Shown: positions 44 through 57,032, counted from the first letter of the stretch. The stretch: DNA of 63,439 nucleotides from a virus (IMGVR_UViG_3300036466_000234:1-63439), one strand, 5' to 3'. Notes: generated from the letters alone by a model not told the origin. A program made the numbers and translations.

Positions 44-259
44 TTACCCATTTGTGCCACACAACTCCATATCATCTATCCACACTTCATCATATTTACA
101 CAACTCTCTGTTACATCTAATGTTGTCTTGAGATAGATATATCAATCTTCCATCCTTTATATGAAACTCTTTAATCAATTCCCCCTCAATACAACTTTTA
201 CCATCAACAGTTTTAAATGTTACTAATTTATACATCCTACACTTCCTCCCAATACCCAT
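44..259 (-). CDS. Hypothetical phage protein (true start probably MYKL at about 235)
   Basis: ORF with GGGAGG RBS; no recognisable motif. Confidence 0.5.
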   Translation of the reverse strand: MGIGRKCRMYKLVTFKTVDGKSCIEGELIKEFHIKDGRLIYLSQDNIRCNRELCKYDEVWIDDMELCGTNG

Positions 260-525
260 TATATGTCATCCCTGTGACTTCTATACACCTATCATAACAA
301 TCCACTATCTTACCATCACAAAAAGCACATTCATCTTGACAGTCAGCCATGTTAGGCTTTTCTATCCACACATACTTCACGCCATCTCTTACAACCTCCA
401 TAACACTCATCTCCTTATTTATATAGTCGTGGCACACTCTGTGTAAAGTTCCATACAATTCTTGCTCATGCTTATTGCAATAATACTCATTTCTGTATAC
501 ACATGTACCACAATATTCTACAGTT
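237..525 (-). pseudogene. Cys-rich hypothetical gene truncated at its 5' end by the IS605-type element
   Basis: The frame stays open (TVEYCGTCVYRNEYYCNKHEQELYGTLH...) right up to the element's TCAC end at 526. Confidence 0.55.
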
Positions 526-640
526 GTGACATACTCTCACCACCTAGACTAACGTCTTGAGGGGGGAGCTTCTTGGGTAATAAGTACTTGTACTAGCTAC
601 CTAAGTTTACCAAGCTAACAGGGAATGCCCTTCCCTTTTT
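510..640 (-). ncRNA. Predicted TnpB omegaRNA (reRNA): scaffold overlapping the tnpB 3' end and right end, with a guide from flanking DNA (AACTGTAGAATATTGT)
   Basis: Established IS605 architecture; GGGCAT...ATGTC pseudoknot complementarity, subterminal hairpin, TCAC terminus at 526; boundaries approximate. Confidence 0.65.
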
Positions 641-1766
641 ATGTTGATAGACGCATTTACATCTCTATCGACTGTGTAACCACAATCACAAGAGAATGTA
701 CGGTCTGATAATTTCAGATTTGATTTTAGAGCACCACAAGAGGAACAAGTCTTAGAAGATGGATACCATTTATCAATCTTTATTACTTGCTTTCCTTCTA
801 GTTTAACTTTGTACTCAAGGAATGTGGTAAACATACCCCATCCATTATCAGATACAGACTTTCCAAAGTTAAGAGCCTGTGACATACCTTTCATATTAAG
901 GTCTTCAATGGCTATTGCCCCATACGTAGAAACAAGTTCTCTTGATTTCTTATGTAGAAAGTCTTTTCTCTGATTAGCTACCTTTTCGTGTAGCTTTGCG
1001 ACAATTAATCTTTGCTTATGGTAGTTATTAGAGCCTTTAACCCTCTTAGAGAGTTTTCTCTGTGCTCTAGCTAGTTTCTTTTCCATAGCTCTGTAATATC
1101 TTGGGAAATTGGCTTTCTTTCCATCTGATGATACATACAGTTCTTTCATAGAAAAGTCTAACCCTACCATATTGTCACTAGGTTGCTTTATTATCTCTAT
1201 TTGATACTCTGTAAGGATAGATATATAATACTTTCCTGTTGAAGTTCTAGAGATAGTGGCTGATTTGATTTTGTGATCTTGAGGTATAAGTCTATGGTTT
1301 ACAAAAGTAACTAATCCAAGCTTAGGAAGTTTGACCTTGTTTCCTTCAATTCTAATCGAGTTATTAACTGAATTGGTAGAATAAGACCTCTTAGGGTGTT
1401 TCTTACTCTTGAATTTAGGGAACTGTGCTCTTTTTTGAAAGAAGTTAGTAAAAGCTTTCTTCATATTCATTTGAGCATTAGCAAGAGCAAGGCTATCAAC
1501 TTCCTTTAACCAAGGAAACTCTTTCTTATACATAGCAGGAGTAAATATTTTACTCTTTCCAGTAGTTTCATAGTGAGCTTTACTATCAGCCAGCAATTTA
1601 TTGTAAATAAATCTAGCTGAACCAAAAGTTCTCTCTATAAGATTTCTTTGCTCTTGATTTGGTTTTAACCTAAATTTGTAAGCTTTGTTTAGTTTTTCCA
1701 TAGACTTTCACCTCCTTACTTTCTTTGATTTTGGATATATTGTTTAATAATTTCTATTGGAGCACG
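526..1766 (-). mobile_element. Non-autonomous IS200/IS605-family element: tnpA C-terminal remnant, tnpB and right end
   Basis: TnpA-like tail APIEIIKQYIQNQRK* directly upstream of tnpB; right end reads ...GAAGCTCCCCCCT...AGGTGGTGAGAGTATGTCAC. Confidence 0.85.
607..1701 (-). CDS. tnpB: RNA-guided endonuclease TnpB
   Basis: N-terminal KAYKFRLKPN HTH, RuvC motifs GLDFS / IEDLN / DRDVNAS, Zn ribbon SSKTCSSCG...CDCG. Confidence 0.96.
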   Translation of the reverse strand: MEKLNKAYKFRLKPNQEQRNLIERTFGSARFIYNKLLADSKAHYETTGKSKIFTPAMYKKEFPWLKEVDSLALANAQMNMKKAFTNFFQKRAQFPKFKSKKHPKRSYSTNSVNNSIRIEGNKVKLPKLGLVTFVNHRLIPQDHKIKSATISRTSTGKYYISILTEYQIEIIKQPSDNMVGLDFSMKELYVSSDGKKANFPRYYRAMEKKLARAQRKLSKRVKGSNNYHKQRLIVAKLHEKVANQRKDFLHKKSRELVSTYGAIAIEDLNMKGMSQALNFGKSVSDNGWGMFTTFLEYKVKLEGKQVIKIDKWYPSSKTCSSCGALKSNLKLSDRTFSCDCGYTVDRDVNASINIKREGHSLLAW

Positions 1767-3137: not shown

Positions 3138-3199
3138 ATTAGGGTGCAAACCGAGACGATTAGGGTGCAAACCGAGACGATTAGGGTGCAAACCGAGAC
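3138..3199. repeat. Three tandem 21-bp iteron-like repeats ATTAGGGTGCAAACCGAGAC(G)
   Basis: Copies at 3138, 3159 and 3180, abutting the stop of a Rep_3-like gene; AT-rich tract at about 3035-3075. Confidence 0.9.
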
Positions 3200-3202
3200 A
3201 GT

Positions 3203-8376: not shown

Positions 8377-9606
8377 TTATCTGCAATCTACTATAATGCC
8401 ATGTATATCTTTTCCGACTATAAACATATTTTGTGATACAGAAGAGAACGATATATTTAATTTTTTATCAGAGTAGCTATTCTCTCCACATAGACTTGAG
8501 CTTCTCGCATAGTCACTAGTTATTAATGGGGAATGAATGTGTCCAAGCATAGCGTAGTCCGCCCATATTCCACTATATGTGAACCATCTTTCTTTAACTG
8601 ATTTGATTTCTCGATCTAGATTTGAATGTTTTATATTGTTACCATGAAGTATGATAATCTCATGTCCGTTTACATGAATCATATCTTCTAATTTATCACA
8701 ATCATTTATAAATGTAATATAGTTTTTATATTTTCTCTTTAACATTTGATATACCATATAATCTAAATTGTCTTTAGCAACATCATCTACGTTAGACATA
8801 TGTTCGTGACCTTTCATCCTAGATTCATTGCCTACAATCCCAGCCATACTTATCTCATATCCTTTATTTAATAAATACTCAACTATCTCACAATATAAAT
8901 CGAACGCCCTTAAAAATGATTCTGCTCTAGTATATTGATTGGTCAAGAGTTGATCTAATCTATCATCTAAATTCAATCCATCTCCTACCCACAAAACTGT
9001 TATGTTAGATATGTTCATAGATTTGGCATATTCTAAGGATTTATTTACATACTTAAACAATCTTTGTCTGGCGACATCCATATTAAATTCATTAGTTGGT
9101 AACGATATTTTTTGACCAAGATGGTGGTCACCAAAACATAGAATCATTTGCTTTTGTAGGTTTTCATCAATGGGCTTAATTCTGCATGGGGTGTAGTTGT
9201 CGCATCTATTATCTACATAATCCATTAATGAATCTATAAAATTAGAATATACTTCATTATTTCTATACATAGACCTGTCATCTTTTCTAAGTATTCTCAA
9301 ATCATCTCTAGACTTTTGTAGTTGTTTTCTAAGTTTTGCGTTCTCTTTTTCCAATGACTCATCTATCTCAACCTCTTCCTCTGCATAATAGTTAGGCTTA
9401 ATTTCACCCTTCCTAATTACATTTCCATCACTAATAGTTATACCTCCATCTTCAAATTGGCATAGATATTTTTTTGTACTTCTTCTACCCACCGAATGTA
9501 TACCTAGAACTTTAAATTTACCATGATAGTTGCTTTGAAATGTTTTGCCTATATACACATCTAAATCATTTTGACTAGGTATGATATTTTTATTTATTTT
9601 ATACAT
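8377..9606 (-). CDS. Calcineurin-like metallophosphoesterase with N-terminal accessory domain
   Basis: GDHHLG, VGDG, GNE, LHGN, GHIH motifs. Confidence 0.8.
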   Translation of the reverse strand: MYKINKNIIPSQNDLDVYIGKTFQSNYHGKFKVLGIHSVGRRSTKKYLCQFEDGGITISDGNVIRKGEIKPNYYAEEEVEIDESLEKENAKLRKQLQKSRDDLRILRKDDRSMYRNNEVYSNFIDSLMDYVDNRCDNYTPCRIKPIDENLQKQMILCFGDHHLGQKISLPTNEFNMDVARQRLFKYVNKSLEYAKSMNISNITVLWVGDGLNLDDRLDQLLTNQYTRAESFLRAFDLYCEIVEYLLNKGYEISMAGIVGNESRMKGHEHMSNVDDVAKDNLDYMVYQMLKRKYKNYITFINDCDKLEDMIHVNGHEIIILHGNNIKHSNLDREIKSVKERWFTYSGIWADYAMLGHIHSPLITSDYARSSSLCGENSYSDKKLNISFSSVSQNMFIVGKDIHGIIVDCR

Positions 9607-10236: not shown

Positions 10237-13200
10237 TTATATCTTCACTACACTCATCGACTCTATAAAGCTATGGAACATACCCGTTTTCTGCCATTTG
10301 CCATCCACTAACATGCTTCCTTCTTTTTCTTCTGTTGCATTAACTAATATTAATTGATCTTTCTCTGCAATCATATTATCTTTTTTAACTTTATAAGTTT
10401 TAATCTCACCCGTTTTAAGGGAGAAGGTTTTAACTATATAAGTAGAGTATGGCTTTTTTCTGTCTAGTATATACATAAACTCATTTTCCATGCTAGGGAA
10501 TATCTTGCTAGTGTGACCTAGAATTTGTAATTCATTTACAGATTTTTGTATTTCTGGCAAATCTTCATTGCTTGACTCAATTTCTGCAACTATATTATAC
10601 AATTCTGACAACACTCCAACCTTTATATCAACTTCCTCATTTAACTTAAAGTATAAGTTGTCCATGTCTACTATATTAGCAACGTGGTTATATAATGCCT
10701 CTCTCTTGGTCATTCTAAGCTCTTCCGATTTAACAGATGTGTATTTTACTGCACTCTTAGTTCCTAGAGCCAATGAGAGGATATCAGACAGTTCAGATTC
10801 TGTTATACCTAACTCTATAACTCCAATCTTAGCTAAGAATTTAATATCAGTAGCAGAGATTTTTAGTTTATTATCTTTGATATAAATTATCATATCTATA
10901 ATGTTGTTAATTGTAGAATTATTCAACTCATTTAATTCCGATCTTAATCCATCATATTTTTCAACAGCTTTTGTAATGCTGCCGCTTTTGTATGATAATT
11001 TACTCTCTGAGCTAACAGTCAATTCTGCAATATCTAGCAATGCTTTTTGGTTTCCAAACTCTTTAAAAAAGTCTAGCTTGATTAAGATTGAAATATCAGA
11101 TGAAGACAATTTTATATCATTATCTTTCATATAAATGAGTAATTCAAAGAATGAATTAAACTGCATATTGTCTATTTTATTCAACTCTTGCTCTGTATTT
11201 TTAGACAACCCCTTAGCTCCATATAATCCTTCATAGATAATGTCCCTTTCTTTGTCGTATGAATATTCCATAGTAGCCTTGCCAAATCTTGGTGGCTCTA
11301 TTTTGAGGTTGGTATGCTGTTTAATGTAGTTGAATATCTCCTTCATTTTATCAGTCTTATCTTTAAACTCATTTAGATTAGCTGTGATAAATTCTTTTTC
11401 ATGGTAAGTTCTAAGCCATCCACATATAAATCCTGTTATAGAGTATGTTATAGCATGGTTATATGAAAATGAATAGTCTGAGGCTAGTTCAACTATCTCT
11501 AAAAATCCATTTACTAATTTATCACACTCGTCTCCGCTCACATTGTATTTTTGACTAAAATTATTCTTAAATCCAATCCTTATATCATTTATTAATGAGC
11601 GAGTATCTCCTTTTTTGGCCACAGCTCTTCTAACTACGTCCGCCATAGCTTCACTATAACCACAAAATTGTGTTAAGAATGATATTAAATCTTCTTGATA
11701 TATGATATACCCCGAATTGCCTTTATAAAATTCATTTATGGCTTCATGTCCGTTGTCGTACTTTTTTCCCGATAGGTAATCCTTCCTTATTGATGCTCCC
11801 GAAGGGCGTATACATCCAGAAACAAAACTCATGACCTTTATTAATTCAGTGCCACGTATATTATCTATAGCTTGTGCTAATTGTTCATGTGACTTCTCAG
11901 CTTCAAATTGAAAGATCCCAACAGGACTTTTTTTAATATTGTTCCATACATTCATATCTGTAAAGTCACAAGTTTGAGGATTCAATCTTTCCATGCCTAT
12001 ATATTCAAAAGTCTTATTTATAACGCCTATATTGGCTAATCCTAAGGCATCCGCCTTTACATACCCTAATTCTTCCAACTCTTTCATATTAAGCTGTGAG
12101 GCAGTCCTATAACCCTTCTCTGTGGTTTTATCCGTAATAGTAATCAATCCTATTTCTTTCTCTATATCTAAGTCTGAAACCAATACTCCAGCAGGGTGTC
12201 TACCTATCTTAGTAGTAGTGTCTATGGTTATATCTACATACTTAAAGAAGTCAGTATATTTTTCATCTTTTCTTGAGTCCGACACATTATTTTTAATATT
12301 CTCCACTTCTCTTAATGGTAAGTTAAAACCTCTACCCATCATATCAATAGCACCCGCTTCTTGTTCTGTGCCGAATGTTATTATGTCACTACAGTTTAAT
12401 CCATTCACACCATAAAACCATTCTTTAGCCCTATCTCTTTCGTTGGGGGCTATATCAACATCTATATCCGCCAAACTCACACGATGTTCATTCATAAATC
12501 TACTAAAACTGGTCTTAAACATTATTGGGTCTATCTCTGTAATCCCTAATAAGTACGATACGATACTTCCCGAACTTGAACCTCTGCTGTAGCCAACGTG
12601 AATCCCATCATCTTTTAATCCTCTTATCCAATCTGAGAATAACAACATATATGATTCTGCACCCATAACTCTATACACTTCTAATTCTTGAATTAATCTA
12701 TCTGCATATTCTTTATTTCCGACAAATCCTTTATTTTTAAATTCCTCTAAACATCTATCTGTCATCATCTTGATAGGATTGTCATATAGATTAGGGTATT
12801 TAAATGACTTGTCCACCTCATATTCCTCAGCCATATCATATAATACATTAGTATTAGCTAGAGACTCTTTTGCTATACTTTCATCTATCCCTTGCTTAAT
12901 ATACCCCAACAACATCTCATCATATGATTTTAATGAAAGATCAAAACTATCCTCATCTGTAAAGTTCATACCTTTAGATTGTTGCATTTTAGTTCTAACT
13001 TCACCTGTAAATTTATCTGTATAATGCACATCATTAGATGCTATCAATTTATAGCCATGCTGTTTTGATAATTCTATTAACTTCTTATTATATTCAATTT
13101 GTTCTGCATAATCATGTGGTTGAATTTCTAAGAAAAATTTATCTTTATTCTCTAACCCCCATGCTAACAACTTCTGTGCAACCTCACCTTCTATATCCCT

Positions 13201-43202: not shown

Positions 43203-43933
43203 TAAAAGTTGAAATAAATGAAAAAGGTGAACAGTTAGTCAGCGGAAGAGAATTGCATAAATTTTTAGAAAATACCGAAAGGTTTAGTTCTTGGTTTAAC
43301 AGACAATTAGCATATGGCTTTGAAGAAGATGTGGATTATGTAGGGTGTAAAACTTTTAACACCCTTGCAAATACTGAACTACAGGACTATATTATTAAAA
43401 TTAGTATGGCTAAAGAAATATCTATGATACAAAGAAATGAGAAAGGCAAGCTCGCTAGAAAATATTTCATTGATTGTGAAAGGCGATTGTTAGAAGTGGA
43501 TAAAAAGAAAATGCTGTTAGCAGACTTATTCGATGATGACAAAATGGTGGTTGTAAATGCTCATAAGAAATTAGTTGAAATAGAAAAGCAACCCTTATTG
43601 GATAAAATTGAAATAGATAAACCTAGAGTTGAATTTGCAGAAACTATAGAGAGGTCATCCGATAGTATTTTAGTAAGAGACGTGTCTAAAATATTAGCAA
43701 ATGAGGGGATTAAATTTGGTGAGAAGAAATTATATGCTTGGCTTAGAGAAAATAGTTTAATTGAAAAGTGTAAAAATATTCCTACTCAAAAAGGAATAGA
43801 TTTGGGGTTGTTTGTTGTCATAGAGAGTGTATACAATACTGCATACGGAAAGAAGATATCATTCACACCTAAAGTTACAGGCAAAGGTCAAGTGTATATC
43901 GTTCAAAGAATAAAAAAGGAGTTTCAAGCATAA
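43193..43933 (+). CDS. AntA/AntB antirepressor with KilAC domain
   Basis: VSGRELHKFL...MAKEISMIQRNEKGKLARKYF; KVTGKGQVY. Confidence 0.9.
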   Translation: MELIKVEINEKGEQLVSGRELHKFLENTERFSSWFNRQLAYGFEEDVDYVGCKTFNTLANTELQDYIIKISMAKEISMIQRNEKGKLARKYFIDCERRLLEVDKKKMLLADLFDDDKMVVVNAHKKLVEIEKQPLLDKIEIDKPRVEFAETIERSSDSILVRDVSKILANEGIKFGEKKLYAWLRENSLIEKCKNIPTQKGIDLGLFVVIESVYNTAYGKKISFTPKVTGKGQVYIVQRIKKEFQA

Positions 43934-44133
43934 AATTGTATTTATTTTGTTATATTATACAACATTTGAGGGATTGAGTTTTGTCACTACTGAATCGGTA
44001 TCTATATATGTGAGTCGACTGAGTTGACTCCTCATCTCTCTTTTTCATATATCCTTTTTAAATCGCTTGGGGTAGCTAGCGTAAAAAGGATTTGTATATT
44101 CTAGCTACCCACCCCTTAAAAAATAATTTTTAC

Positions 44134-44162
44134 TTGACTTTTTTTCATTAACATGTTATAAT
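44134..44162 (+). promoter_or_regulatory. Promoter of the ncRNA island, TTGACT-17-TATAAT
   Basis: Consensus with TG extension. Confidence 0.75.
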
Positions 44163-44250
44163 TAATTTGTTCATTTGAATCACCTCCTAATATATATAGT
44201 TGCTCCATTTAAGGGATGATGGAGGGTAAAATTGGCATCCCTTTTCATAT

Positions 44251-44328
44251 AGGTGAGTTACCCAAATGGCAGGGTTCAGATAAAATTGATTATCTGTGGT
44301 GGAGGTTCGATTCCTTCCTCGCCTTTCA
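44251..44328 (+). tRNA. tRNA-like element with aberrant anticodon loop (identity unassignable)
   Basis: Acceptor AGGTGAG/CTCGCCT, D arm ACCC/GGGT, T arm GGAGG-TTCGATT-CCTTC, 10-nt anticodon loop, TCA 3' end. Confidence 0.6.
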
Positions 44329-44344
44329 TTAAAATCATATAGTG

Positions 44345-44697
44345 GTTATTTGTAATATGGTAGGGGAATTAATCCTTACGCCCACTTGTGAGTATAAGTT
44401 GTCACTGTAGGGAATATTGCAACTATAAATAAGTATATGTCAGACTCAAGTCGCCTGTAACAAGGAACTCCCTCATAGAAAGACTTTGTGGTAACAAAAG
44501 ATAACTTGGTGAGAGTATGTCACGTAACCGACCACCAACGAAATGCTATTCGGATGGTTAAAGCACCCTCCTGTGGGCGTTAAAAAATATAACAGGAAAA
44601 TGCTCAAGGCAAAGAGTGAAAAATAAGTCCAACCATCAATATTAACATAATAATCGAATACAGGAGTAATGGCTGAGTTTATTGCTCAGTCTTTTTT
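44345..44697 (+). ncRNA. Large structured non-coding RNA of about 350 nt; family unassigned
   Basis: Several long-range complementary segments in a locally GC-richer non-coding tract, closed by an intrinsic terminator. Confidence 0.6.
44671..44697 (+). terminator. Intrinsic terminator GGCTGAG-loop-CTCAGTC-TTTTTT
   Basis: Hairpin plus U-tract. Confidence 0.75.
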
Positions 44698-44719
44698 ATT
44701 ACACTATAAAGGAGGATAT

Positions 44720-45475
44720 ATGGGAAAGTTAAGCAGTAGCAGAGCATCGGAAAGGAAATATCAGAGGTTTTATTTAAGCAAGGATGAAGTTCCATTAAAT
44801 AATGTAGCACCATTAATAATTTATGAGAAGCCCGACAATCCATTAACTATCAATAGTTTGAGGGGAATTAACTACCAAGCTGTATCAAAAGAAAAGTTGG
44901 CACACAATCTAATATTTCAATGGCATGTGGAAGAATCTCTAAGAAGGGAAATGGCACACGAGAGGATTCGTAGCAATATCCTAGCTAGAAGAATGATCGA
45001 GAATGGATTAAATGCAGAGTTAGAAATTGATGAAATTAAAGAATATGAACAATCTTTTGCTACATCAATAAAGGATAGCATAGATATGGTTATGGAAAAT
45101 GCTCCTAGAGATATTCGTGAAGAAATTCTCACAAGAGTGAAAAATGAAATGGCTAAAGTATCTATGGAAATAAAGCAAGACTATGAATATAACTTATTCA
45201 GAATTGATACTCAATTAGCATACCTAGATTCGCTTATGGCAGATGTTGTTAGTTCTCAAGACAGAAGGATTCCATTAAAGGAGAAGACTAGCATAATGCA
45301 GAGACTTGCTAAAGAGCAAAGAGAAGCTATTAAAATGAAGAAGGAAATATTGCAAGATATGGGTGTAAATTTGAAAGAGTTGGGCAAAAGCCAAGAGATT
45401 AAGGATGATAGAATTGGAGGAGAGGAAGTTAGGAAGTATGGAAAGGTGAACTTATCTTCTCTTAGAGGTGATTAA
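44720..45475 (+). CDS. Putative terminase small subunit
   Basis: Helical protein directly upstream of terL; AAGGAGG RBS; positional inference. Confidence 0.5.
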   Translation: MGKLSSSRASERKYQRFYLSKDEVPLNNVAPLIIYEKPDNPLTINSLRGINYQAVSKEKLAHNLIFQWHVEESLRREMAHERIRSNILARRMIENGLNAELEIDEIKEYEQSFATSIKDSIDMVMENAPRDIREEILTRVKNEMAKVSMEIKQDYEYNLFRIDTQLAYLDSLMADVVSSQDRRIPLKEKTSIMQRLAKEQREAIKMKKEILQDMGVNLKELGKSQEIKDDRIGGEEVRKYGKVNLSSLRGD

Positions 45476-48818: not shown

Positions 48819-49258
48819 TTATTCTCTTCCTCTTTTTTTGTCACTACTTAAATGGTATCTATTATGGTGAGGTGAATGAGTTGACTAGTTATCATGTATT
48901 TGATGCAAAAGTAAAATTCTTCAATCACAAAATTGGGGAATGGGAATATGTGTTTATAAAAAATATATACGACTTCTACTATGATAAAGAAAGGTGTGAG
49001 TTGGCTGTCAAATATATCACAGACACAGAAATCCACATAAACTCATCTTATAAAGTGTCTAATGTCCAAGAGGAAAGTTTTTCTTGTGGCGTTATAACTA
49101 AAGAGCAATATAGAACTTATAATTTAAATCTGATGGATGATGGAATGATCTTAAAGAGGATGGAGAAGTTTTCAAATTCTAAAAGAGCTTATTCTAGCAA
49201 AAAGTTATTCAAATCAAACAAATATAGAAGAAAGAGGGGTGTGGAAGATAAAGATTAA
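48806..49258 (+). CDS. Hypothetical protein (true start probably about 48870)
   Basis: ORF between terL and the portal gene. Confidence 0.5.
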   Translation: MEEIIILFLFFCHYLNGIYYGEVNELTSYHVFDAKVKFFNHKIGEWEYVFIKNIYDFYYDKERCELAVKYITDTEIHINSSYKVSNVQEESFSCGVITKEQYRTYNLNLMDDGMILKRMEKFSNSKRAYSSKKLFKSNKYRRKRGVEDKD

Positions 49259-56501: not shown

Positions 56502-57032
56502 ATGGGAGTAGTTGCAAAATTAAAACTTAATGAGAAAAAGTATATGGACTTCATGGTGGGTACAAGCGAGCTTGCCATGAGAATCCCATCTACAAGAGAA
56601 ATAATTAAAATGGAATCAAAAAATACAACTCTAGATGGTGGAGTAGACATAGCTGGATATATAGGGGATATATGCAAGCTTATAATACCTCAAAATGATA
56701 TAAACAGCATCTGCAAAGTCCCATCTGAAATAGATATTGCAATAGGTGAAAGAAATATTACACTCAAAGGAATAACAGCAGAAAAGTCTTTACAAATAAT
56801 AGCTGAGTCGGCTAAGATTGAAAAAGACCCAAAAGATCCTTCAAATGTAATTCTAAGGCCTAATACAGAGGGTATGATAGACTCTATACTGGCTCTTTCA
56901 GAAGAGAAAATAGATATAGATGATCTAAAGTATAAAGAAGTTATGCAGATACCAGATCTCTTTCAAGAGAAGATTGAGGTGAGTACACTTATGGATGTGT
57001 ACAACTTCTTTCAAGAAAATTTCCAAGCCTAA
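56502..57032 (+). CDS. Tail assembly chaperone (gpG-like)
   Basis: Between tube and tape-measure genes; slippery heptamer near its end. Confidence 0.7.
   Translation: MGVVAKLKLNEKKYMDFMVGTSELAMRIPSTREIIKMESKNTTLDGGVDIAGYIGDICKLIIPQNDINSICKVPSEIDIAIGERNITLKGITAEKSLQIIAESAKIEKDPKDPSNVILRPNTEGMIDSILALSEEKIDIDDLKYKEVMQIPDLFQEKIEVSTLMDVYNFFQENFQA

Follow-up and report, generated by a model that had tools for sequence, protein, structure and literature searches.

The closest described systems to the locus reported here are the right ends of IS200/IS605 elements of the ISGst/ISDra2 type and the omegaRNAs that end in them. As outlined in the structural account of Nakagawa et al. (PMC10097598), an omegaRNA unites a crRNA-like and a tracrRNA-like part in one natural single guide. 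In the cryo-EM structure of the ISDra2 RNA given there, positions -5 to -3 pair with -103 to -105, the unit recognised by TnpB is a 116-nt core with the pseudoknot, and the deletable parts are only the 5′ region (-231 to -117) and stem 3b. Geobacillus relatives are described as having the TAM TTTAT and the transposon-encoded motif (TEM) TTCAC, and TnpA as able to choose alternative boundaries and to capture flanking DNA (Meers et al.). Palindrome-associated transposable elements (PATEs) are presented as protein-less IS200/IS605 derivatives whose omegaRNAs need TnpB in trans, and the use of these RNAs in trans is already discussed in print (Meers et al. 2023). Domesticated TnpB proteins of prophages, such as TldR, are summarised in the literature as nuclease-dead, with a guide of fixed sequence encoded beside the gene. 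Titles and abstracts of this literature contain nothing specific on orphan or solo TnpB right ends in phages.

Here we describe an isolated copy of such a terminus in a phage genome. The window, that is, the whole stretch of DNA that was analysed, is one whole IMG/VR virus record of 63,439 bp with 32% G+C and a CheckV completeness of about 40%. The isolated copy, called the orphan below, shares with ISGst/ISDra2-type right ends their last 17 nt, including the TEM GTCAC, after which an unrelated flank follows; in an alternative allele of the locus (X4) the family TAM TTTAW lies beside that flank. It differs from these right ends in lacking both the 107-nt scaffold (P1, pseudoknot, P2, P3 and inner P4) and an adjacent tnpB. 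With PATEs, as they are described, it has in common a right end without its own tnpB, a TnpB elsewhere in the genome and, going by a single low-depth contig, an apparent indel polymorphism that ends at the TEM. However, PATEs keep left and right ends and a complete omegaRNA, whereas the orphan has no left end or TAM and its scaffold is degenerate. Solo or truncated IS ends, for example locus L288, in which the 5′ strand and loop of P4 are deleted, resemble it as partial right ends that retain the terminus; the orphan differs from them in its position downstream of a strong phage promoter, with predicted transcription, and adjoining a tRNA-like gene. TldR, on the published summaries, shares the phage context of a TnpB-family protein and the fixed-sequence guide, but here the RuvC motifs are kept and the orphan is remote from the gene and without a scaffold. 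We consider it probable that the orphan is a solo right-end stump of an IS200/IS605 element (ISGst/ISDra2-like, TnpB type), itself probably inert, in a variable tRNA cassette.

Terminus and RNA structure of the right-end family

Relatives of the phage element were gathered from 5 viral and 80 genome loci, the latter being the best 80 of 227, among which the top identity is 64% (Cetobacterium). At TnpB-linked loci, 65 genomic and 19 viral, the right ends share the terminus GTGG(T/C)GGG(AG)TA(G/T)(T/G)TCAC and diverge immediately after it. Written with its preceding positions, the conserved architecture of the family ends in ...ARGTGG(T/C)GGG(AG)TA(G/T)(T/G)TCAC, with unrelated sequence beyond. 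A degenerate pattern scan of IMG/VR returned 67 loci, 19 of them with an upstream TnpB match. The exact 17-mer was found at 68 metagenome loci, 22 with a TnpB match in the at most 800 nt of upstream sequence covered, and at about 32 of the 68 an AGAAGC-YCCCAC motif is visible by eye; at these metagenome loci the 17-mer stands behind many differing scaffolds. In viruses the exact scan gave two loci, one genuine right end and one S24-peptidase coding sequence, and the remaining matches of the scans are mostly chance or S24-peptidase genes, in which the 17-mer encodes GESMS. None of the three scans (viral, degenerate viral and metagenome) yielded a further orphan copy of the ACTTGGTGAGAG type. 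Judged from these comparisons, right ends of ISGst/ISDra2-like TnpB elements close with the 17-mer as a conserved terminus, corresponding to the 3′ end of the omegaRNA; it is the most conserved piece of the whole right-end family. Since this conservation is family-wide, the identity of the two copies in the phage implies, taken alone, neither a recent shared origin nor selection.

When RNAalifold was applied to the raw MAFFT alignment (A1), helix P2 alone was recovered. Alignment A2 comprises 37 TnpB-linked right ends, a length-homogeneous subset that was re-aligned and in which helices were annotated by hand. It contains five helices with 27 pairs, 17 of which show compensatory changes; 94% of the cells are paired, a level reached by none of 500 shuffles, and slid controls are 34-51% paired. 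The pseudoknot between the P1 loop and positions -5 to -3 covaries (CG 20, AU 15, other 2; n = 37) and agrees with the pairing reported from the ISDra2 cryo-EM structure (PMC10097598). It also covaries with the TEM variant, GTCAC occurring with GRC loops and TTCAC with GAA loops, so RNA structure, in addition to TnpA, limits the choice between GTCAC and TTCAC. In the family model the 17-mer constitutes most of the P4 3′ strand, the pseudoknot 3′ strand and the TEM. A covariance model, R1, was built from the 37 right ends of A2, with no sequence from the window, and was run over the whole window with filters off.

Two other arrangements were observed in contigs. An IMG/VR contig rated 100% complete (G003; L173:1440-1516 and L234:1440-1516) carries two copies of a module of about 55 nt, CTTGC..GCAAGAATACTNCCGCCCTACRGCGGTGAGAGTATGTCAC, with differing downstream sequences, in a phage genome without a TnpB TNB domain; both are candidates for a minimal right-end-like module lacking a nuclease. 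In contig G004, which has two TNB-domain genes elsewhere, positions L195:1501-1540 form a perfect palindrome, GTGACATACTCCCACC-TCTTA-GGTGGTGGGAGTATGTCAC, in which a right-end terminus and its own reverse complement make one hairpin.

The tnpB element of the phage

The phage has one tnpB gene (Table 1), the product of which contains the Pfam domains OrfB_IS605, Cas12f1-like_TNB and HTH_OrfB_IS605. Its TNB domain (640-840) is the only one in the record, and the gene is 42 kb away from the orphan, which, as the initial annotation stated, has no tnpB beside it. R1 recovers the right end of this element at the score given in Table 1. Of tnpA, only the last approximately 13 codons are left, upstream of tnpB; the rest of the gene and the left end were not found by a left-end motif search or the left-end HMM. 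A 156-aa ORF without a Pfam family, at 1807-2277 on the minus strand, ends about 100 nt from the start of tnpB. Given the short tnpA tail and the proximity of this ORF, a deletion appears to have removed the left end of the IS. The same IS is present in three metagenome contigs (L240, L274 and L251), with TnpB 99-100% identical over the part covered, right ends identical to that of the window or different at a few positions, and other flanks. Because the flanks differ, the element is, or recently was, active elsewhere in a similar community. The copy in the phage is probably immobile, with TnpB and omegaRNA apparently intact as judged from their sequences.

Table 1. Features of the tnpB element and of the orphan locus in the window, with the pseudoknot of the family alignment.
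Feature	Position	Strand	Evidence or remark
tnpB, 364 aa, RuvC motifs GLD, IEDL, DRD	607..1701	-	ISDra2 TnpB 8bf8, E 1.3e-69
Bona fide omegaRNA scaffold / right end	526..638	-	R1 80.9 bits, E 1e-15
Guide position of the omegaRNA of the tnpB element, flank AACTGTAGAATATTGT	510..525	-	
tnpA C-terminal remnant APIEIIKQYIQNQ	1725..1763	-	10/13 identical to L098 TnpA, E 0.001
Lineage-specific cassette, ~535 nt	44112..44647		Variable hot spot between conserved hairpin and terminator
Cassette promoter	44134..44162	+	TTGACT, 17 nt, TG-TATAAT
tRNA-like gene	44251..44325	+	Rfam tRNA 37.5 bits (gathering score 29), E 3.8e-6
Segment of 247 nt without counterpart in X4 (TTAA instead)	44277..44523		From 3′ half of tRNA-like gene up to TCAC boundary
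ACAAGGAACTCCC	44460..44472	+	Weak likeness to family CCNAGAAGCYCCC (P2 3′ strand and start of P4 5′)
Orphan right-end terminus copy	44507..44523	+	Exact 17/17 match to 526-542(-)
Transposon-encoded motif GTCAC of orphan	44519-44523	+	Family model
Putative 16-nt guide GTAACCGACCACCAAC	44524..44539	+	Best read as ordinary insertion-site flank
Intrinsic terminator	44671..44697	+	Common to relatives L238 and L239
Pseudoknot covariation	Alignment A2 columns 10-12 with 113-115		

A second copy of the terminus

The 17-mer TGGTGAGAGTATGTCAC occurs exactly twice in the window, once at the end of the tnpB element and once at the orphan locus. A third site is absent at up to two mismatches, for which the expectation is 0.01 matches, and none of 100 shuffles contained two matches. 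Both the exact recurrence and its sharp end were noted in the initial annotation and are confirmed: identity ceases at TCAC, beyond which the tnpB copy continues with AACTG and the orphan with GTAAC. Similarities listed further upstream are at chance level. Apart from the 17-mer, the best blastn match between the two loci is a 12-mer (E 0.063), the likeness of ACTGTAGGGAATATTG (44404-44419, ACTGTAG...AATATTG) to the tnpB flank is equalled in 78 of 1000 shuffles, and that of CAAGGAACTCCC, at 10 of 13 positions, is alone not significant.

The window contains about eight dispersed exact repeats of at least 17 nt, and the others among those listed are A+T-rich. One of them adjoins the orphan locus (44323-44340) and has its partner, at 12922, in protein-coding sequence; it is evidently due to chance. 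Since such repeats exist in this A+T-rich window, the case rests on the position, identity and end-point of the 17-mer and not on its length. A tandem array of three copies of a 21-nt unit, ATTAGGGTGCAAACCGAGACG, lies at 3138-3200. That the 17-mer itself recurs by chance in this A+T-rich genome is very improbable. Such repeats do exist in the window, the 17-mer also arises by chance in S24-peptidase genes and there is no statistical similarity beyond the 17 nt, but the 17-mer has 47% G+C in a window of 32%, hardly any match is expected even with two mismatches, and it ends exactly at the TEM, the point at which an independent contig, X4, breaks with the family TAM at the joint.

The orphan lacks an omegaRNA scaffold

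A covariance search for an omegaRNA, asked for beforehand as a check on the orphan, gave a score at noise level. Under R1 the orphan (44429-44523) receives 10.9 bits (E 1.3); it ranks third among 17 matches with E of at most 10, and an unrelated site at 56656 scores higher. The R1 alignment retains only ACAAGGAACTCCC and the 17-mer. Helices P1-P3 and the pseudoknot partner have no counterpart at the orphan in this alignment, and no P1-like hairpin with a GRC loop was found upstream by eye or by R1. ACAAGGAACTCCC matches the tnpB right end at 10 of 13 positions, which alone is not significant, and its CTCCC can pair over 5 bp with GG-T-GAG of the 17-mer. In terms of the family P4, which has 9 bp (CYCCCACYT / ARGTGG-T-GRG), the outer 5 bp are possible at the orphan (CTC-CC / GG-T-GAG) and neither strand retains its part of the inner four pairs. 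Predicted folding of the region is no stronger than that of shuffled sequences (z +0.44 over 220 nt, -0.99 over 531 nt). Rfam contains no match of an omegaRNA-type family at either locus, which is uninformative since the genuine right end was missed as well.

No TnpB coding remnant was detected in 43900-44760 (best E 0.43). A left-end HMM built from 16 left ends had no match in 44277-44523, its only match being the tnpB right end (E 0.003), and a pattern search for the left-end subterminal hairpin (CRAGAA..CYCCCACC..GGTGGTGAGATGAAT) gave one chance-level match, at 8974. Between 44276 and 44277, the left junction, the TAM TTTAW is missing. Two candidate remnants looked suggestive by eye and were rejected: a left end at 44363-44402, where the left-end HMM has no match, and a tnpA fragment, INKYMSDSSRL, at 44425-44457, with a tblastn E of 0.13 and no Pfam match.

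A variable tRNA cassette

The orphan lies in a transcription unit whose promoter and terminator had both been predicted in the initial annotation, and both are present. The promoter matches the consensus at 11 of 12 positions and has an extended -10 TG, and the terminator stem (44671-44691) is followed by a T-run. Sites with the promoter motif TTGAC(N17)TGTTATAAT and conserved flanks recur in the window, at 2946, 10200, 22665, 30822, 38649, 44134, 46397 and other sites, and probably represent one temporal class of phage promoters. No ORF of note is found between promoter and terminator, and in the cassette Rfam has no family other than that of the tRNA-like match. No sequencing runs of RNA that contain the locus are listed.

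The gene downstream has two relatives in IMG/VR, in L238 (89% amino acid identity) and L239 (82%). Both keep the terminator and a conserved hairpin, which ends at about 44111, and both lack the intervening cassette. In L238 its position is taken by about 67 nt (2851-2917). In L239 it is occupied (760-2960) by a similar promoter, tRNA-Cys, tRNA-Trp, a 6A RNA (Rfam motif, 46.7 bits), an antirepressor gene and one more gene; this cassette and that of the window are unrelated in sequence. On the comparison of these three sequences, the content of 44112-44647 is specific to this lineage and fills a hot spot prone to hold tRNA genes. Homologues of 44100-44720 were not found in the phage collection, at 80 loci of antirepressor relatives or in genomes G001 (a Cetobacterium MAG) and G002 (a Peptostreptococcaceae MAG). 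A 58-nt direct repeat (43979-44036 and 48836-48893, 78% identity) recurs in L238, where it precedes the conserved hairpin.

The tRNA-like gene of the cassette has perfect acceptor, D and T arms. It does not have the standard 5-bp anticodon stem, 7-nt loop and readable anticodon; the anticodon loop is 10 nt long, or else a 7-bp stem carries a 6-nt loop. ARAGORN reports nothing at default and 'tRNA-???' at relaxed settings. No similar host tRNA was found in 81 sampled genomes of the family of G001 or in 300 sampled genomes of the class of G002, and the 5′ half of the gene has no match in IMG/VR. It might act as a decoy or as a processing signal, or else be a pseudo-tRNA.

The initial annotation had also suggested that an RNA of this unit shares ancestry with omegaRNA or mimics it. 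Shared ancestry is borne out by the family-wide terminus and by TTTAA beside the flank in X4, and mimicry is not, there being no excess folding and no conservation. A promoter-to-terminator unit without an ORF of note would suit a conserved and structured ncRNA of the phage, acting as a mimic or sponge of omegaRNA. We regard such an RNA as extremely improbable, as Rfam gives the tRNA-like match alone, the folding energy is not in excess of that of shuffles and the sequence is not conserved in relatives.

Alternative alleles and the insertion motif TTTAA

Among sequencing runs, the whole stretch was found only in its probable source sample. Contigs of three other runs, matched at 80% likeness, cover parts of the locus. 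Two of these, X3 and X4, are informative about the orphan; each is a single contig of low depth (3.5 and 2, respectively), and joints matched at 80% likeness may derive from other organisms. X3 has 242 nt, is homologous over 44452-44639 with 25 differences and 3 gaps, and spans the 44523/44524 boundary. It is the sole homologue keeping the region, and in it the 17-mer is not conserved: 6 of the 17 positions are changed, by three substitutions and three one-base deletions, and TCAC is destroyed. The following 16 nt, the proposed guide, differ at 2 positions, about the local background, with 8 listed differences in the next 100 nt.

X4 (record 9) has 151 nt. It matches 44238-44276 (36/39), continues with TTAA and then matches 44524-44631 (107/108), so that its joint reads ...GGGTTTTAA/GTAACCGACC...; here ...GGGTT and TTAA are joined to position 44524, giving TTTAA/GTAACC. 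This sequence at the joint is the family insertion motif. In all 11 left ends found by regular expression at the 85 loci, TTTAA or TTTAT stands 9-11 nt upstream of the left-end CRAGAA, and the motif marks the start of identity among four element copies in one genome. Because the motif directly precedes the flank in X4, the 44523/44524 boundary is probably a true transposon junction, and the putative guide is then flank DNA. In its sequence, the X4 joint has the form of a donor joint or an empty site.

The left side of the segment is less simple. The 247 nt missing from X4 include the 3′ half of the tRNA-like gene, the gap beginning inside its anticodon arm. Both halves of this gene clearly belong together, and the X4-like joined form is not a tRNA. 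A simple insertion followed by decay therefore needs a further event to account for X4. From the two sequences, X4 would be either a descendant of an excision via an upstream TAM-like site, or else the left side of the insertion in the window would have been remodelled later.

These data also bear on a PATE-like alternative, in which 44277-44523 would be a miniature non-autonomous element, still mobilisable or recently excised by TnpA in trans, and X4 its donor joint. The segment behaves as a discrete indel with the TEM as its right edge and an empty form with TTTAA at the joint, and the boundary choice of TnpA is described as flexible, with capture of flanking DNA (Meers et al.). Against it, neither a left-end hairpin nor a left-end guide was found by HMM or pattern search of 44277-44523, the window has no TAM at the left junction, the segment begins in the anticodon arm of a tRNA-like gene whose halves belong together, and scans of IMG/VR and the JGI metagenomes gave no second copy. 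We consider such an element unlikely.

Searches with the proposed guide sequence itself gave little. Within the window GTAACCGACCACCAAC matches only itself at up to three mismatches. In IMG/VR there are 12 exact 16-mer matches, most of them in contigs of 40-67% G+C, in line with chance expectation; none extends by more than 2 nt and no common TAM or other 5′ motif precedes them. A conserved flank 17-mer likewise has four chance matches in IMG/VR, in coding DNA. The only meaningful 'target' of GTAACCGACCACCAAC is the X4 allele.

Origin and possible roles of the orphan terminus

The solo-stump reading that we favour would involve a second insertion of an ISGst/ISDra2-like element at the cassette, with the 17-mer as its right terminus, followed by internal deletion. 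What would survive of the right end is its final 17 nt, perhaps together with 5 outer bp of P4; gone from the scaffold of about 107 nt would be P1, a hairpin that carries the pseudoknot partner, as well as long-range P2, P3 and the inner pairs of P4. The flank GTAACCGACC... would be the DNA 3′ of the insertion site, which is the origin of every omegaRNA guide. RNA across the stump would most likely be a by-product of transcription of the tRNA cassette, and loading onto TnpB is unlikely. We infer both this origin, by insertion and internal deletion, and the inertness of the stump. Several observations do not sit easily with the solo stump. The 17 nt are perfect and everything upstream is unalignable, which selection on a 'repeat-like' part could explain. 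A near-consensus phage promoter lies upstream, and the genome also codes for a TnpB that looks intact. A natural allele with matching TAM and target exists (X4), as a working homing guide needs. The left junction is non-canonical, with TTAA missing in the window and the left end undetected.

A rival reading is a second functional guide acting in trans, as the initial annotation had proposed. The cassette transcript would give a crRNA-like RNA consisting of the 17-mer and GTAACC.... This RNA would load TnpB in one of two ways, by means of a minimal stem of its own or paired to the tracr-like portion of the scaffold linked to tnpB, and the complex would cut the empty TTTAA/GTAACC... allele of competing phages, resulting in their exclusion or in homing of the cassette. 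The exact terminus carries the P4 3′ strand, the pseudoknot 3′ strand and the TEM, the promoter is strong, the RuvC motifs of TnpB are present and X4 provides an allele with a TAM beside a 16/16 target. Published views agree with the principle: omegaRNA as crRNA-like plus tracrRNA-like parts (Nakagawa et al., PMC10097598) and PATE-encoded omegaRNAs that must work in trans (Meers et al. 2023). However, the R1 score is at noise level, and the unit that ISDra2 TnpB is described as recognising is the 116-nt core with its pseudoknot (PMC10097598). If it paired with the tnpB scaffold, the orphan RNA would form 5 bp and another 3 bp in the pseudoknot, and the scaffold's own 3′ strand would compete for these positions. 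Moreover, the 17-mer is not conserved in the X3 homologue, the cassette is missing from both relatives found in IMG/VR, and no target in IMG/VR exceeds chance. The claim of a functional guide in trans is thus not upheld, and we rate it as quite unlikely.

A more elaborate version would combine the two loci: the immobilised IS, which has lost its left end and tnpA with TnpB and omegaRNA intact, would be kept as a weapon or drive, and the orphan would be a crRNA-like second guide against the empty TTTAA/GTAACCGACCACCAAC site of sister phages. In co-infection TnpB would cut the rival genome, and recombination would then copy the tRNA cassette into it. We give this version little credence. If true, it would make this a case of RNA-guided homing from phage to phage, and the arrangement would be a living intermediate linking omegaRNAs with a fixed guide to systems in which tracr and crRNA are split.

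For the family, the solo stump carries a caution: a guide RNA cannot be claimed on the strength of perfect identity to the 17 nt that are most conserved in an omegaRNA, and a structure-aware model is needed. As it stands, the orphan would be a decayed transposon end, a product of ordinary genome wear. An active orphan RNA, on the other hand, would bear on the origin of split crRNA/tracrRNA systems from omegaRNAs. As the phage combines an immobilised IS whose TnpB looks intact with a second right-end junction, and as a natural sister allele has the matching TAM and target, the locus offers a cheap test of whether a phage TnpB may bias inheritance between competitors.
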